Below are positions 1-6,000 of a DNA stretch of 19,475 nt, piece after piece. The position numbers are program-made. Within the stretch, counting starts at the first letter, position 1, and each line of letters begins with the position of its first letter. Location of the stretch: assembly GCA_964584035.1 (NCBI GenBank), contig CAZOYL010000040.1, positions 1 through 19,475 of the forward strand, in the 5' to 3' direction. Source of the DNA: an uncultured Gemmatimonadota bacterium (GTDB lineage: Bacteria; SM23-81).

Positions 1-3000
1 TATGTATCAGATTTAGATTGACTTTTAAACGAAACAGGACATATTCCTGTCTGGCGGGAAGGGATGTGACAACATGTTCCGAAGAACGAGACCCATGAAG
101 CTCTTTCTCTCGATGTGTCTGAGCCTGTGGCTTTGTCTGTTCATCGGCTCACGGGTTCATGCCTACCAGGATGGCGATTGGCAGTTTTGGAATTCCAGCA
201 GTCTGGAGGGAAATGTCCATACGAAGTGGAAACTCAGGTTTGAAGAGCAATTTCGAATCGGCCGGGATGTCTCTGAACTTTTTTATCATCAGACCGGCAT
301 TGGACTGACCTGGAAAACGACCAAATGGTTTCAGGCCGCGGTGACGTATGCTCAGGTGTATGAATTGAAAAAGGGTGACTGGAAAGAGGAAAACCGTCCA
401 TCCGCCGATGGAACATTACAGCGGGAATGGAGGGGCGTTCAGCTCTCCGATCGAAATCGGCTGGAGCTCCGCATTCGTGAAGAAACTGAGAACATTTGGC
501 GGTACCGAAACAATCTCACCTTTTCCCCGGCCAAGAAAGTGTCTCCTCTTCATATACAGCCATACATGAGCGCTGAGATATTCGTCGACATTGAGCAGGA
601 AGATCTCAATCAGTACCGCCTCACGGGAGGTCTCAAGGGCCAATTGATCGATGTTCTCCAGGCCAGCCTGTACTATCTCCGCCAGGGGAAAGAGAAGGAT
701 GGAGATTGGACCGCCTGTCATGTCCTTGGAGCCACGATCAGGGTGCGTCTGTGAGGCCGCCAGCGGAGATGTTTTATGCTGCGTTTGTCGTTGAGAGCTA
801 AGCTGATATTCAGTTTTTCTGCGGTCATCGTGGTGGGCGTTTTCCTGGCGGTCTTGGTCGGCATTCACTTCATCGGCGACACCATTATCCGGCAGACACA
901 GGACAAGGTGCGGTTGGATCTCAACTCGGCCCGGGAGGTGTACCAGGAAGAGAGCGGCCAGATAAGGGACGTGGTTCGCTTGACCGCCGTCAGGTTCTTT
1001 ATCAAAGATGCCATGGCGAAAGGCGACAGAAACGTCTTGAGCCGGGAGCTGCAGAAGATCAGACAAGAAGAGAATCTCGACGTCCTCAACCTGGTCGATG
1101 AGAGCTGCCGAGTCATCGTCAGGACCAGCAGGCCGGAGCTATACGGAGACGATATCATAGAGGATGCGGTGATCGAGAGGGCCTTGTCGCGCGGAGACGT
1201 TGCCGTGTCGACCGAGCTGATCTCCCGGGAACAGTTGGAGAAAAACGGCGACGATTTAGCCAAAAAGGCGGCCATCATGCTGGTTCCCACTCCAAAGGCC
1301 AGACCGAGATCGGAGACGGAGGAAACTTCAGGGATGATGATCGCAGCGGCCGCCCCCATCTTCGGATACGATGGAACCCTGCTTGGAGTGCTTTATGGCG
1401 GAAAGCTATTGAATAGAAATTACCAGATCGTTGATAAGGTGAAAGATATCGTCTATCGCGGTGAGCGATACAAGGAGAAGGACATAGGGACGGTCACCAT
1501 TTTTCAGGGAGACCTGCGTGTGACCACAAATGTGATGCGCTCCGAGGGCACTCGGGCCATCGGCACCAGAGTGTCACAGGAGGTCTACGATCAGGTCATC
1601 GGTCAGGGACAGCCCTGGATCGGGCGGGCCTTCGTCGTCAATGATTGGTACATCACCGCCTATGAGACCATCAAGGATATCAATGGTAACATCATCGGAA
1701 TGCTCTATGTGGGTATGCTGGAAGCGCCATATGTGGATATGAAAAATAGAGTTGTGCTCACATTTCTGGGAATCGCCCTGCTCTGCGTGGCACTGTTGAC
1801 CGTCATTGCCTGCATCACGTCGACCAGCATCGTCAATCCCCTGAAAGAGCTTCTCCATGCGACCCAGAGGGTAGCTCATGGAGATCTCGACCACCGGCTG
1901 CAGGTCACATCGCAAGATGAGATCGGGCACCTGGGAAGATCGTTCAATCGCATGACCGAAGAGCTTCAAAAAGCCACCGAGAGCTACCGCGCTCTGATGA
2001 GCACCCTGGAGGATAAGGTCAGAGAAAAGACCGAGGAGCTGCGCCAGGCGCAGGATCAACTGGTGCAATCGGAGAAATTGACCTCTCTGGGAAAGTTCGC
2101 GGCCGGCATTGCCCATGAAGTGAACAATCCTCTGACCTCGATACTGATCAACAGCCATCTGGTCGCCGAGAGGCTGGAACAGGACGATCGGCTTCAGGAG
2201 CATCTCAAACTGATCGTCGATGAAACCGCCCGCTGCGGGACCATCGTCAAGGGGTTGTTGGATTTTTCCCGCCAGACGCCGCCCCGGAAGGTGCGCACCG
2301 ATATCAACGAAGTGGTGGAGAGAACGCTGCGGCTGTTGAAGAGCCAGATCATCTTGCAGAAAGTGGAAGTGGAGACACGGCTTGAAAAGGACCTGCCGGA
2401 GCTGCAGATCGATGTCAATCAAATGCAGCAGGTGTTCGCCAATCTGATCCTCAATGCCCTGGATGCCATGCCGGGAGGCGGCCGGTTGACCTTCCGGACC
2501 CGGAAGCTGGCCGACGCTGAACGGGTCGAGGTGAGCATCGCCGATACGGGACGAGGCATCTCAAAAGAGCATTTGGGGAAGGTCTTCGACCCTTTTTTCA
2601 CCACCAAGGGAACGGCCGGGACCGGGCTGGGGCTGTCGGTGAGCTATGGTATCGTGCGCCGTCATGGCGGCACCATAGAGGTAAACAGCGAGGAGGGAAG
2701 AGGGACTGCTATGATCATCCGTCTGCCGGTGGAGAAGGCAGGTAAACCATCTGCCAAGCGAGGTGATTGACCATGGAATCAAAAGAAAAGATTCTGGTCG
2801 TCGATGACGAGCTGCCTGTCTGCAGGAGCATCGCCAGCGCCCTTGAGTCGGAGGGCTACCAGGTGGACACGGTCCAAAGCGGGGAGGAAGCATTGGAGCG
2901 GGAACGCGGGACCGGTTACGATGTGTTCCTGGTGGACCTGATGATGCCCGGCATGAGCGGCATGGAGGTCTTGGAAGCTGTCATGGAGCGGAAGCCCAAA

Positions 3001-6000
3001 CCGGTGGTGATCATGATTACGGGATACCCGACCATGAAAACGGCCGTCCAGGCGGTCAAGATGGGAGCGTTCGATTATCTGCCAAAGCCTTTTACACCGA
3101 AAGAATTGCGGATTCTCGTCTCGCGAGGATTAGGCCAGCGCCGGCTTATGGAGCAGGCGGCTGCGGCCGGCCGGCCGCCGGGAGCTGAGGGCTCGTCCAT
3201 GACCAAAGACATTTACTGCATTCCGGGCCACTCCTGGGCTCGGGTGGAGGCGGACGGAAAGGTGCGTATCGGGGTTGAAGAGACCTTTCTGATCTCCCTT
3301 CACCAGGTCAGCTCGGTGGAATTCCCCTACGAAGGTGAGCGGCTGTCTCAGGGTGAGGCCTGTCTATGGCTGACGGACAAGCAGAACAATCTGCATCGCA
3401 TTTGGGCTCCTCTGAGCGGTCAGGTCGTTGCCATTCATACGGAGCTGAAGATGGATCCGTCGCAGATCCTGCGGGATCCCTACGGGTCCGGCTGGCTTTT
3501 GCTGCTCGAGCCCGAACGGTTGCAGGAAGATCTGGAAAATCTGGTGCCCTTACAACACCAGTAAGCGGCGCAGGGGCGGATGATGCACCGTTACCGCATT
3601 GAGAATGCGGAGCCATGAAGATGGACGAGAAAATTAAAATCCTGGTCGTCGATGACGAGCTTCCGGTGGGTAAAAGTATCTCACACGCTTTACGGGAAGA
3701 AGGCTATGATGTCGATATGGCGCTCAGCGGAGAGGAGGCGCTGCAACGGCTGCGCCAGTGCTCCTATGCCGTCATGGTCGCGGATCTGATGATGCCTGGC
3801 ATGAGCGGCATGGACCTTCTCTCCGCTGTGAAAGAAACGAACATGAACATCTCGGTCATCATCACCACAGGGTATCCGTCCACCAGGACGACCGTTCAAT
3901 CGATCAAGCTGGGAGCCTTCGATTACCTGCCCAAGCCCTTTGCACCAGGAGAGCTTCGAGCGATTGTAGCTCGGGCCCTGGAAAGGCGCCGGCCGGAAGA
4001 AAAAAGGAATCCTTCGGACTGACCGCCCGCGTATGCCGTTCAACCCAGGTGTGGCCATGAAACCTCCCGCTATCGACAGATGCATCCTGCAAACTCTCGA
4101 TCTGTTGAGAGGATTCGATCCCCGGACCGTCATGTTCTTAGACCGCCGGGGCCGGTGGACGAAAGGTCCCCAAACGGCCCGGGACCGGGTATCGAATGAG
4201 TTGTGGTTCTTTATCTGGCAGAGCCATCGCCAGGATGCCCGGCTTGAGGTTCTGCGGGATATCTTCGCGCCGTTCCTCGGCGATCCGACCGGCTGGGCGG
4301 TCACTGGGAAGATCTATCGCTGGCTCTGCTCGTCGGCTCCTCAGGATCCGGGTGAGGTGCTCCAGGTGGTGGAGGTGATCACGGCTCTCATCCAACATCG
4401 TGCCTGGCAAAGAAATGGGACGGCCTATCGGCCCGATTGGGATTCCAGAGGAAAAGCTCTGCGGGCCGGATATATGGAAAGAGCCCGGGCTTTCGCTGCG
4501 GGCCTGGAGGGATGCCTGGAGGGTGAATCTGAGCTGGCCCGCTGGCGCGAGATGTGGCCGCAGCTCATGGCCGCCGCGGGAGGATCGATCGACCGCCTGT
4601 GCGCCATCATCTCAGAGGAGGAGAGCATACGGGACCAGATCGAGACCGTCCTTCATGCTCTTTGGGCAGCGCGTCAAAAGGATCAAGCCCTGGCCCTGCT
4701 GGAAGAACAGGTTGGGCCCCTGTTGACCATGAGGCCGGCCCATCAGCAAGCGCTCTTGAGACCCTGCCTCGATCTGCTGACGCTTCCTCAGCTCGAGATG
4801 GTCAGCGGCCTGCCGTATGAGGTGACCGGCATCCTGGGGAAATTGCGTGATATCCGCTCTACGGAACATCTCCTCACCGTGCTGGAGAATTGCGCTCGGA
4901 AATACACTCAGGTAAGATGCAACGCCATTTACGCCCTGGGCCATTTCAGAGACAGGTCCGCCCTGCCGTATTTTCTTGAGGTTCTTACGGGACCCAACAG
5001 CACCGATGTTGACCTCTCCGGCCGGTCCTCCGGTTATTCGCTCTCTTTACGCGGTGAAAAGCGGGAATGCATCTGGGCTCTGGGCCGGCTGGGAGCCGAA
5101 GCCCTGGAGGCGATACCGGTCTTGGCCAGATACGGCCGCAATCCCGAACGGGATATCAGTGCTGTGTTAGCCTGGGCATTGGGGTGCATCGGGAAGGGGC
5201 AGAAGGAAACAAGTGGAGGGCTGGACGCCGCCCTGGTGACCAGCCTGCTGCAATTGCTGCAGGTCGACGACCACCTCGTTTTCGAGGAATCGGCCATGGC
5301 CATGAGGGGGCTGGGGCTGCCCGACTTCCTCCACCATCTCTATCTGCACGACTTCGCCACGGTGCCGATATTGTCTCTCAAACCGAGCAGCACCGGGTTG
5401 TACGAGCTGTCGGAGACGCTTTTTTACCTGATGTCGATGAGATCCCCGGTGGTCATGGCGGTCACCGGGGATTCCGGAACCGGAAAAACTTACTTCTGCG
5501 AGACTCTCATCGAAGGATTCGGCAGCCTGCGCCGGAAGGATATTCTCTATCTGCAGAGAGATCGCCCCGGCCATATGATGATCTTGAACAGGATCCTCGG
5601 TCTCAGATGGCTGCGCGATCATGTGGCCCCTCAACATTATGAAAATTACCCTCTGGCCGAAGACCGGGACGATCCGGACCTGTTCTTTGGACAATTTATG
5701 CAGCAGCATTCCCGGAGAAAATTGATCATCCTGGATGGCTGGAGAGATTCGGATTACTTTCATGAGGTGATCCGGCGCTTCTATGAATACGGACATCTCG
5801 ATGTGCTGGTGAAGTTTCATAGCACCTATTCGACCAAACGGCTCAATCTCGAGGAGCGCGAGGGAACGCTGGAGCGCGTCACGGCCCATCTGCCGCTGGT
5901 AGAAGATCCGGCCATCGAGGAGACCGATTTCTATCGCGAGGGAGCCGTGCTGCTGTATCAGCTCGACAACTCTATATCCTCACGCTTGAATGATCATGAG

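Follow-up and report, generated by a model that had tools for sequence, protein, structure and literature searches.

A receiver joined to an H-protein fold without its lipoyl-lysine, encoded in a conserved cassette with a HEAT/P-loop/WD40 protein

What can a response regulator control when its output domain resembles the H-protein of glycine cleavage? The question is raised by a REC-GcvH-like protein of 263 aa (P0001) encoded on the plus strand at 2773–3564 of the window, that is, of the whole stretch of 19,475 nucleotides that was analysed. Its stop-free translation carries the two domains claimed by the initial annotation, and Pfam places their boundaries where they had been put: a receiver at aa 7–114 (2791–3114, plus strand; Response_reg, 102.4 bits, E 2.1e-29) and a GcvH-like output domain at aa 152–258 (3226–3546, plus strand; GCV_H, 55.6 bits against a cut-off of 22.2). 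The receiver set is complete, with D11, D12, the phospho-acceptor D55, T83 and K105 invariant across 120 aligned sequences. Its nearest solved structures by sequence and fold search are NtrC1 and 3jte, with fold matches to 3jte and 1zy2 at TM 0.88–0.93 and sequence matches to 1zy2 at 2e-22 in the PDB and to AtoC at 5.9e-28 in NCBIfam. Regulators of the NtrC1/DctD/AtoC type (1ny5, 1zy2, 1qkk; NCBIfam AtoC) hence provide the closest receivers, including the long alpha-5 linker helix, which extends to aa 131 in the predicted structure, and the core of the neighbouring kinase is closest to AtoS (NCBIfam). However, the resemblance to NtrC/AtoC is confined to aa 1–128: Pfam finds neither an AAA+ sigma-54 activator domain nor an HTH after the receiver, and no DNA-binding or enzymatic domain was found in the regulator with Pfam or NCBIfam.

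The GcvH fold of the output domain had earlier been proposed from sequence alone, and structure prediction now bears it out. The AlphaFold model of the regulator reaches a pLDDT of 91 and a pTM of 0.89 over both domains, the latter being a sign that the receiver and the GcvH-like domain may adopt a defined mutual arrangement. Foldseek superposes the output domain on the E. coli H-protein (3a8i chain E and 3ab9) with a TM of 0.84 and an rmsd of 1.3–1.9 over 114–119 columns, and its sequence matches in the PDB are H-proteins (3tzu, 2.9e-14; 1onl, 6.7e-13). The domain and GcvH (PF01597; E. coli 3ab9 and 3a8i chain E, T. thermophilus 1onl) share the same fold at 28–33% identity, as well as the core motifs W155, G167, P213-x-x-G216 and P236-Y237-x-x-G240-W241. 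All the residues that had been listed as invariant recur in an alignment of 30 sequences, but in 120 sequences Q193, Y237 and G240 are conserved only at a level of at least 90%, the others still being invariant.

The differences from GcvH lie in the arm and in the genetic context. In the alignment with the true H-protein of the same genome, the lipoyl-lysine column is occupied by N205, within the former lipoyl hairpin T201-D-K-Q-N205-N-L-H208-R209-I-W211 (3373–3405, plus strand). Among the best 120 relatives the column holds G in 33, K in 22, N in 19, D in 17, E in 10, R in 6, L in 4, A in 3 and other residues in 6; the share of lysine (18%) is near the 2 of 12 reported before, and it is 4 of 70 among wider representatives taken at 50% identity. 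The claimed loss of the lysine therefore stands, and the output domain is supported as an H-protein fold in which the lipoyl-lysine is not conserved. The hairpin has in turn been re-lined. The H-protein pattern E-x-x-K-x-x-S/T-D/E-x-Y/F is replaced by D-x-x-x-x-x-H-R/K-x-W throughout the 120 aligned regulators, where, counted from the lipoyl column, D(-3) is kept in 100, H(+3) in 106, R/K(+4) in 118 and W(+6) in 120 sequences, so that the family has conserved hairpin residues of its own in D202, H208, R209 (R or K in the family) and W211. The hairpin face is what we take to be the partner-contacting side of the H-protein in its complexes with T-protein (3a8i), LplA (3a7a) and LIAS (8ugo), all three of which are among the best fold matches of the regulator, and the +3 and +4 residues presumably line the arm cavity in H-proteins, as in the pea H-protein literature. 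In contrast to GcvH, moreover, the domain follows a receiver in the same protein and is unlinked to gcvT or gcvP; the separate true H-protein reported for this genome was recovered elsewhere, with the motif EAVKAV, on contig C217.

The regulator belongs to a cassette that runs in one direction throughout, with gaps of at most 51 nt. Upstream lies, as claimed before, a sensor histidine kinase of 664 aa (776–2770, plus strand) with dCache_3/sCache_3_3, HAMP, HisKA and HATPase_c domains in Pfam; it stops 2 nt before the regulator ATG, and GAGGTG is found just upstream. A kinase of the same type directly precedes the regulator in 12 of 15 public loci. Downstream of the regulator lies REC2 (3615–4022, plus strand), a stand-alone receiver of 135 aa that belongs to the same family by Pfam and has no GcvH-like domain. 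It keeps D13, D14, D57, T85 and K107, the family's C17 being changed to G, and shares 60% identity with the receiver of the regulator next to BIG in genome G006. Tandem regulator pairs are seen in the loci of relatives, and REC2 occupies the slot of their second full REC-GcvH-like gene; of the paralogue next to BIG in the window only the receiver is left. The junction from the stop of REC2 to the start of BIG is bridged by contigs from two further runs. Metabolic genes are also seen at these loci: a 2-oxoacid:ferredoxin oxidoreductase beside the cassette in the window, PTA in L014, an acetyl-CoA synthetase (ADP-forming) in both L006 and L116, and in L005 an acetyl-CoA hydrolase gene that separates the kinase from the regulator.

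BIG itself (4033–7224, plus strand) is a protein of 1063 aa, or of 1055 aa if the ATG at 4057 is the start. Pfam, profiles and alignments give its layout as an N-terminal region, HEAT-like repeats, a P-loop kinase-like core (aa 430–690; 5320–6102, plus strand), delimited by alignments, an AlphaFold core model and Foldseek and VIA matches, and a C-terminal WD40-type beta-propeller at about aa 745–1063 (6265–7221, plus strand; Pfam, and PDB profile 2ymu at 1.1e-52). The central P-loop domain is the most conserved part, with the Walker A motif AVTGDSGTGKTYFC (476–489), LDG (567–569) and S-T-x-R-x-N-L-E-x-R-E (600–610). Its AlphaFold model is of middling quality (pLDDT 64). Foldseek relates it to PPK2, to thymidylate, adenylate and uridine-cytidine kinases and to PRK at E 3e-5 to 1e-3, with PRK 9qkp (3.2e-4) and UCK2 (8.6e-4) at TM 0.23–0.35, and VIA gives a Z of 8.8 for Grc3 and 8.6 for Clp1; all these scores lie in the range of the general fold only. 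The sequence likeness to PRK is weak, covering aa 468–498 only in NCBIfam PRK07429 (E 0.0084) and about 30 residues only in PRK structures of the PDB (E 0.069–1.6), and no substrate-binding motifs could be matched. Of known proteins, BIG comes nearest to small P-loop kinases, to the Clp1/Grc3 polynucleotide kinases (8puw, 4ohv) and to the PRK/uridine-kinase type of Walker A; it has a P-loop core with the Walker A GDSGTGKT, but in BIG the domain lies between HEAT repeats and a WD40 propeller. No match to STAND, NB-ARC or NACHT families was obtained with Pfam, NCBIfam or PADLOC; in VIA an NLR (6j5t, Z 6.6) and an AVAST5 filament (Z 6.5) fall below the kinase matches (8.6–8.8), and Apaf-1 matches BIG in the PDB profile search only in the WD40 part.

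Every assessable BIG gene is preceded by the regulator, and to this extent the cassette is hard-wired. Of the 15 full-length public loci, 12 have BIG directly 3′ of the regulator, and the same type of kinase is found upstream in 25 of 26 BIG loci with enough upstream sequence. Within a class sample of 151 genomes, the order kinase–regulator–BIG holds in 19 of the 20 genomes that carry BIG, the 20th BIG lying at a contig end; regulator and BIG occur together in 19 genomes, BIG without the regulator in 1, the regulator without BIG in 6, and neither in 125. In the window's own phylum BIG occurs in 3 of 7 genomes, and all 4 of its genes are preceded by the regulator. The regulator does occur without BIG, in 6 of the 25 regulator-positive genomes of the class sample, and no BIG was found at E ≤ 1e-20 in the genomes of loci L006, L007 and L017. 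Regulators from such genomes retain the H-R-x-W patch, which therefore cannot be BIG-specific. When 30 BIG-linked and 7 BIG-less sequences, which are mutually related, are compared, no hairpin position stands out, and the positions conserved in the BIG-linked set but not in the BIG-less set are mostly in the receiver (I14, L35, I53, S62).

Given an H-protein fold without its lysine in a protein that has no DNA-binding or enzymatic domain, a protein-binding output would be the most economical reading of the GcvH-like domain. We propose that D55 of the receiver takes its phosphate from the Cache/HAMP kinase of the preceding gene. The H-protein fold would have given up lipoate, with N205 in place of the lysine, and its old lipoyl hairpin would have acquired the conserved patch of D202, H208, R209 and W211 as a docking surface that would become available or unavailable with the phosphorylation of the receiver. 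The likeliest partner in this lineage may be the BIG scaffold, because it is encoded in the same operon and no assessable BIG gene occurs without the regulator. We give an even chance to this proposal, a non-transcriptional response regulator that acts as a phosphorylation-gated docking module with BIG as its likely partner; it builds on the domains, fold, lysine loss, conserved patch and gene linkage that are observed. The initial annotation had already favoured non-transcriptional docking, in agreement with the lack of DNA-binding and enzymatic domains, but the lipoyl- or aminomethyl-handling partner that it guessed finds no support among the annotated neighbours of the 15 loci, and the gene that is linked, BIG, had gone unmentioned. 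Against docking on BIG speak REC2, the BIG-proximal paralogue in the window, which is devoid of any GcvH-like domain, and the regulators that exist without BIG; gene neighbourhood alone is also weak support for physical contact.

Among known systems, the protein-contact response regulators of the CheY-FliM type and others with stand-alone or protein-binding outputs resemble the regulator in having a full phospho-acceptor receiver with an adjoining kinase, an output that is neither DNA-binding nor enzymatic, and a non-transcriptional gene as conserved neighbour. They differ in that the output here has an H-protein fold, and the presumed partner would be a giant HEAT/P-loop/WD40 protein of no known family. 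The cassette suggests a signalling route, so far undescribed, whose end point is something other than DNA binding. We consider it possible, with the balance somewhat against it, that this is a new bacterial pathway, in which a fold that once carried lipoate, and whose arm cleft has been remade from His, Arg and Trp, would serve as a switchable plug on BIG and trigger its nucleotide-dependent activity. If true, an extracellular Cache signal would be converted into a phosphorylation or assembly event on a cytoplasmic target without a transcription factor, and the plug would be a module for protein recognition in general that arose once from GcvH and is joined in other proteins to FAD/Fe-S/CCG oxidoreductases.

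Other functions can be envisaged for the GcvH-like domain. It may be a reader of a ligand or 'arm'. The cleft in which true H-proteins harbour their loaded lipoamide arm would here be lined by His, Arg and Trp and would accommodate either a small metabolite or a prosthetic arm that another protein offers. The regulator would then combine kinase and metabolic signals, and BIG would be a lineage-specific accessory. The H/R/W patch kept in genomes without BIG, the close lysine-less GcvH-like domains fused to redox enzymes (P0246, P0262) and the acetyl-CoA and acetate genes that recur beside the cassette (L005, L014, L006 and L116, and the oxidoreductase of the window) agree with such a reader; nevertheless, no tool indicates a ligand, the metabolic neighbours vary between loci, and why BIG should depend so strictly on the regulator is not accounted for. 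We regard this reader as unlikely. Less likely still is a regulator without any output of its own, a phosphate sink or dimerisation-only tuner of the kinase in which the GcvH-like domain provides dimerisation or stability. NtrC1/DctD-type regulators work via receiver-linker dimers, and the receiver with its long alpha-5 is most like theirs; a bare receiver in the same operon and tandem pairs in relatives would also fit. However, the surface patch of D202, H208, R209 and W211 is conserved over many phyla and the domain has been kept in more than 100 clusters, which speaks for a specific interaction; the cassette has no other candidate output regulator.

The remaining alternatives keep the domain within lipoate metabolism. 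Phosphorylation-controlled docking on GcvT, GcvP, dihydrolipoyl dehydrogenase or LplA/LipB, and regulation of that enzyme, is suggested by the fold and much of the core, which are those of the H-protein that binds exactly such enzymes, and both gcvT and a true gcvH are encoded in 5 of 5 regulator-bearing genomes checked. Having gcvT tells nothing here, because the gene is nearly universal and occurs in 11 of 14 control genomes. Among the annotated neighbours (ORFs near the regulator) at the 15 full-length public loci, none was seen that handles lipoyl or aminomethyl groups, and in all 5 genomes checked the gcvT-gcvH pair is separated from the cassette, by 2.7 Mb in the complete chromosome G007. 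As the hairpin residues used by H-proteins are also replaced throughout, we judge docking on these enzymes quite improbable. A domain that still carries lipoate, as an H-protein paralogue under phosphorylation control, could be argued from the GCV_H score above the Pfam cut-off and from the lysine of 22 of the 120 close relatives, but at least 8 different residues, lysine among them, occur in that column and lysine is not kept consistently inside clades, the E(-3), S/T(+3) and D/E(+4) context of true H-proteins is gone, and the genome has a separate true gcvH. Such a carrier is hardly credible, and for the window's protein it is rejected by N205.

The homologue search returned 1859 proteins at E ≤ 0.001 among 3669 candidates, the number given earlier, and the best 120 all have both Pfam domains; 'about 1900 relatives' is an upper figure, because the remaining 1740 or so may partly match by the receiver alone. 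The claim of a widespread class absent from the literature agrees with our searches, in which no publication on the REC-GcvH-like family or its cassette was found; the census paper searched, of archaea only, does not mention an H-protein-fold output. At the level of abstracts, LbpA / GcvH-L (sHdr sulfur oxidation, S. aureus) are lipoate carriers, and one abstract states that conserved lysines of such acceptors carry the attached lipoate (PMC6067878, PMC12440151). As far as these abstracts describe them, they are like the present domain in being H-protein paralogues recruited away from glycine cleavage, and relatives of our domain are fused to Fe-S/CCG (Hdr-type) modules; the present domain would differ in having no lysine and in being under receiver control. 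Among the related lysine-less proteins, P0246 combines three GCV_H domains with FAD_binding_4, FAD-oxidase_C, Fer4 and two CCG domains, and P0262 joins REC, GCV_H and Fer4.

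The regulator P0001, a protein of 263 residues encoded on the forward strand at 2773–3564, is a two-component regulator with a putative protein-contact output. Translation and Pfam place its receiver domain at residues 7–114 (102.4 bits) and a GCV_H domain at residues 152–258 (55.6 bits against a cut-off of 22.2), with the same boundaries as in the initial annotation, and neither a DNA-binding nor an enzymatic domain was found in the protein. The gene had been placed behind a Cache/HAMP histidine kinase, and this is borne out: the sensor kinase ORF (776–2770, forward strand; dCache_3/sCache_3_3, HAMP, HisKA and HATPase_c by Pfam) ends 2 nt before the ATG of the regulator, with GAGGTG just 5′ of that ATG. 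Promoter and terminator scans of window positions 1–8000 gave no counts above chance level, and no RNA data set was listed for positions 2400–4400. The AlphaFold2 model built from an alignment of 120 sequences has a mean pLDDT of 91.1 and a pTM of 0.89, with values under 50 only at the linker (residues 138–141), and we take this high pTM of the two-domain model to suggest that the receiver has a defined position relative to the output domain. By Foldseek, the C-terminal domain matches the E. coli H-protein (3a8i_E, 3a8k_E and 3ab9) with a target TM of 0.84 and an rmsd of 1.3–1.9 over 114–119 columns, and the N-terminal domain matches NtrC1-type and other receivers. A PDB sequence search returned H-proteins (3tzu, 2.9e-14; 1onl, 6.7e-13) and the NtrC1 receiver (2e-22). 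The domains, the predicted fold and the PDB sequence matches thus confirm and strengthen the original observation of a receiver joined to a GcvH fold.

About 1900 relatives had been claimed for this architecture. The count was reproduced, 1859 of the 3669 candidate proteins reaching E≤0.001, and both domains are present in all of the best 120; since the domain architecture was displayed for these best 120, the 1859 is an upper figure. The residues reported as invariant were all found again in an alignment of 30 sequences. With 120 sequences, Q193, Y237 and G240 become nearly invariant (at least 90%) and the others stay invariant. Two cysteines, C17 of the receiver (window 2821–2823) and C197 of the GcvH-like domain (window 3361–3363), each occur in about 90% or more of the 120 relatives; both are present in 105 and both absent in 4, a pattern that relatedness could explain.

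The lipoyl-lysine is indeed not kept. The true H-protein of the window's genome, on contig C217, has the motif E-A-V-K-A-V, and when the 120 relatives were aligned with it the lipoyl column held G in 33, K in 22, N in 19, D in 17, E in 10, R in 6, L in 4, A in 3 and other residues in 6; P0001 itself has N205. Counted from this column, the hairpin of the family, unlike that of true H-proteins, carries D at −3 in 100 of the 120 relatives, H at +3 in 106, R or K at +4 in 118 and W at +6 in all 120. Run against 1.84 billion representatives, a profile built from just this domain gave 7506 matches at E≤0.001, of which 1650 reach 1e-10 and 13 reach 1e-30. The receiver-plus-GcvH layout, as judged by a length of 235–300 and a domain start at or beyond residue 130 rather than by Pfam, is found in 70 among the best 150 of the 7506; of these 70 representatives, 4 have K in the lipoyl column, 53 keep H(+3) and 44 keep W(+6). 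In a FastTree of the domains (rooted at the midpoint, with branch supports not read and rows of over 35% gaps left out), the receiver-fused ones and fragments form one large group apart from the K-bearing H-proteins. A Cys-His-Asp catalytic triad of C197, H208 and D202 was considered and dropped; the hairpin register puts C197 about four residues off H208.

Downstream of the regulator, in a context on which the initial annotation did not draw, the window encodes the large protein BIG (ORF 4033–7224, forward strand; 1063 aa, or 1055 aa from the ATG at 4057), for which Pfam gives only weak HEAT and WD40 matches. One genome per species was scanned, which gave 80 loci, 15 of which (L003–L017) match P0001 over its full length; 64 others are receiver-only matches and were left out, and L076, taken up as a distant relative, was dropped for its REC-GAF-HD architecture. 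ORFs were called by a greedy longest-ORF rule, and those near the regulator were put through Pfam. In 12 of the 15 loci the gene immediately 5′ of the regulator encodes a Cache/HAMP kinase; upstream of the remaining ones, an acetyl-CoA hydrolase gene is intercalated (L005), a different short kinase is present (L007) or the arrangement is not resolved (L012). On the other side, an ORF of 904–1070 aa with HEAT/WD40 character follows the regulator in 10 loci, and L003 and L013 each have an ORF that runs off the contig and matches the N-terminal part of BIG (39% over 415 aa in L003, 27% over 322 aa in L013), so that BIG follows the regulator in 12 of 15. Other genes take its position in L006, L007 and L017, and the genomes of these three loci gave no match to BIG at E≤1e-20.

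The linkage was also examined from the side of BIG. Among seven genomes of the window's phylum, BIG was found in three, in four copies, each preceded by the regulator. In a sample of 151 genomes from the class of G007, a relative with a complete chromosome, BIG is present in 20; tblastn on the loci gave the order kinase, regulator, BIG in 19 of these, and in G093 BIG abuts a contig end. When the same 151 genomes were searched with the regulator alignment, full-length or fragmentary genes were found in those 19 and in six that are BIG-less (G011, G012, G106, G110 twice, G137 as a split gene, and G153). Both genes are therefore present in 19 genomes, BIG alone in one, the regulator alone in six and neither in 125, the genomes being kin. 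The pattern is plain: the regulator is found without BIG and BIG is never found without the regulator, the lone case being a contig end. In many lineages this regulator class is hard-wired to a giant P-loop scaffold.

Three genomes carry an interrupted or degraded BIG: G046 (L111/L115) has one BIG piece with many stops, G054 (L110/L113) has BIG in two pieces, and in G142 (L112) a truncated regulator adjoins only the C-terminal third of BIG. Either the cassette is decaying in these genomes or their assemblies are faulty. A complete bacterial-type kinase/regulator/BIG cassette (L004) lies on a contig of 5951 bases in a MAG labelled Candidatus Heimdallarchaeota, and four loci are in MAGs labelled Clostridiales/Eubacteriales; errors of binning or labelling are a more probable cause than gene transfer.

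Apart from three shorter entries, members of the BIG family have about 1030–1070 residues and share 34–72% identity over 96–100% of their length, and their database names are only 'hypothetical', 'HEAT repeat' or 'WD40 repeat' protein. The centre (aa 430–690) is the most conserved part and contains an invariant Walker A, A-V-x-G-D-S-G-T-G-K-T-Y-F-C, followed by L-D-G and then S-T-x-R-x-N-L-E-x-R-E. Residues of about 250–430 are HEAT-like and the C-terminus is a WD40 propeller (2ymu, 1.1e-52). Matches to sequence profiles extend no further than the P-loop (PRK07429, E 0.0084; CbbX, 0.003; PRK, 0.07), and in PDB profile searches WD40 and HEAT matches dominate for the whole protein and Walker-A-level matches alone are returned for the central domain. 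The AlphaFold model of the centre is middling (pLDDT 64.4, with blocks 30–170 mostly at 76–95). Its Foldseek matches are PPK2, thymidylate, adenylate and uridine-cytidine kinases and PRK (E 3e-5 to 1e-3, TM about 0.4). VIA-align puts Grc3 (Z 8.8) and Clp1 (Z 8.6) on top, then SRP-type GTPases and the uridine-kinase-like domain of TTM1, with NLR and AVAST proteins lower (Z 6.5–6.6), values that by the tool's own caution stand for a shared general fold. We call the centre a putative P-loop NTPase of kinase-like type. BIG has no usable match in the ESM Atlas. A reading as a defence system was dropped, as PADLOC had no match for BIG and matched the regulators at the receiver level only.

The analysis shows a complete receiver beside its kinase, an H-protein fold lacking the lysine, a hairpin conserved in a manner specific to the family, and BIG as an obligate neighbour of the regulator. 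The mechanism that we propose is as follows. The Cache/HAMP kinase would phosphorylate D55 of the regulator, phosphorylation would change how the GcvH-like domain is exposed or arranged, and the hairpin patch of D202, H208, R209 and W211 would dock on a partner. In the complexes among the fold matches of P0001, the hairpin face of the H-protein is the side which we take to be offered to the T-protein, LplA and LIAS. We take BIG as the likeliest partner of the regulator in this lineage, at roughly even odds, and the mechanism overall is only half-supported. Evidence against it comes from the BIG-less regulators, which occur at two or more places within the regulator tree and retain the H-R-x-W patch. 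When 30 BIG-linked regulators were compared with 7 BIG-less ones, the differing conserved positions were mostly in the receiver (I14, L35, I53 and S62); no convincing BIG-specific surface was found on the GcvH-like domain, and nothing striking in the hairpin. The patch may thus have a more general role. Neighbours of the BIG-less regulators hold no single alternative partner common to L006, L116, L117, L118, L017 and L007: an ADP-forming acetyl-CoA synthetase and a DRTGG protein precede the kinase and a solute-binding protein follows the regulator in L006 and L116, an orphan regulator lies behind FtsEX in L117, two regulators, cytochromes and a further GcvH-like protein are in L118, a hydrogenase and DPP-IV in L017, and a different kinase set in L007.

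Alternatively, the patch could serve to bind a ligand, or else a prosthetic arm, in what was the lipoamide cleft, which we consider unlikely. This would fit fusions of lysine-less GcvH-like domains found in a library without length limit, such as P0246 (1391 aa), where three copies are joined to FAD_binding_4, FAD-oxidase_C, Fer4 and two CCG domains, and P0262 (445 aa), where REC-GCV_H is followed by a 4Fe-4S dicluster domain. A search with residues 144–263 found no fused forms at E≤0.001 among longer proteins (462–2000 aa), which by the tool's own account is weak evidence. The lipoyl- or aminomethyl-handling enzyme guessed as partner in the initial annotation finds no linkage support: gcvT-gcvH is present and unlinked to the regulator in five of five genomes, lying 2.7 Mb off in G007, and such a partner appears highly improbable.

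Further GCV_H proteins were seen alongside. Tandem GCV_H proteins occur among close relatives (P0260, P0277, P0315, P0311 and P0301). A third kind, distinct from both true gcvH and the regulator, consists of open frames of 311–350 aa with a long N-terminal extension before GCV_H (L118, 11199–12131, reverse strand; G012:C57:16260–16625; G009:C66:26490–26831; G011:C16:26423–26791).

Between the regulator and BIG, the window encodes REC2, a stand-alone receiver of 135 aa (3615–4022, forward strand). In G006, a relative, two tandem REC-GcvH-like genes precede BIG at both BIG loci (L083, 4661–6167, and L086, 3619–5122, both on the reverse strand), and REC2 occupies the place of the second, BIG-proximal full gene. 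Its identity to the receiver of that proximal paralogue is 60%. REC2 keeps D13, D14, D57, T85 and K107, has G at the family's near-invariant C17, and ends 16 residues past the aligned receiver and its helix. By sequence, REC2 looks like a paralogue whose output domain was cleanly lost. The system of the window thus has one full regulator and one bare receiver, putatively under the same kinase. Contigs of two other runs, which may belong to one campaign, bridge the stop of REC2 and the start of BIG, and the arrangement is thus not peculiar to one assembly. Several pairs of close relatives lie on contigs of equal length (46095, 8509 and 10972), which suggests tandem regulator pairs to be common in this clade.

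Response-regulator outputs define the use that bacteria make of a signal. To our knowledge, nearly all of those studied act by binding to DNA, by synthesising or degrading cyclic nucleotides, or by contact with the flagellar motor. P0001 belongs to a real, widespread and unstudied class whose output is a retired cofactor-carrier fold. A full-text literature search, with subscription papers outside its scope, found no paper on the receiver-GcvH output architecture. Going by titles and the starts of abstracts, none of the papers listed for GCV_H and response regulators treats such a fusion, and the papers that use the term 'GcvH-like' all concern, by their listings, lipoylated carriers. The main text of an archaeal two-component census (PMC5847659) makes no mention of GcvH, glycine cleavage, lipoyl or H-protein. 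The architecture is present in databases, with JGI names such as 'CheY-like chemotaxis protein/glycine cleavage system H lipoate-binding protein', and 18 of the 30 nearest ESM Atlas clusters bear the mark of both families, REC and GCV_H, three of them with 62, 60 and 211 members. The output domain occurs in many uncultured sediment lineages, among them WOR-3, Eisenbacteria, Calditrichota, KSB1, Aminicenantes, Cloacimonadota, Gemmatimonadota and Ignavibacteriota. It is a clear example of a cofactor-carrier fold put to new use once the cofactor was lost, here tied to a protein of 1055 residues with an invariant predicted nucleotide-binding site and no known function. The regulator and BIG form a concrete, testable pair, with a defined patch (H208, R209 and W211), toward a new signalling route.

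Genes for acetyl-CoA and acetate metabolism recur by the cassette, encoding acetyl-CoA hydrolase/transferase, PTA, ADP-forming acetyl-CoA synthetase with a DRTGG protein, and 2-oxoacid:ferredoxin oxidoreductase (L005, 6577–7869; L014, 3547–5706, reverse strand; L006, 2815–5987; L116, 496–3669; window, 7919–10420). The kinase core and the receiver are closest to AtoS/AtoC by NCBIfam, and the Cache sensor may possibly detect a short-chain carboxylate. Co-directional after BIG, the window carries genes for a GNAT acetyltransferase, 2-oxoacid:ferredoxin oxidoreductase alpha and beta, a peroxiredoxin, a nitroreductase and a glutaredoxin (7448–11793), a run that is not conserved by the cassette elsewhere. 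A MacB/FtsX ABC transporter and a LolA-like gene are flanked by four sizeable ORFs (219, 389, 409 and 208 aa; 11757–13573 on the reverse strand and 17655–19473) for which Pfam gave no match at E≤1e-5.
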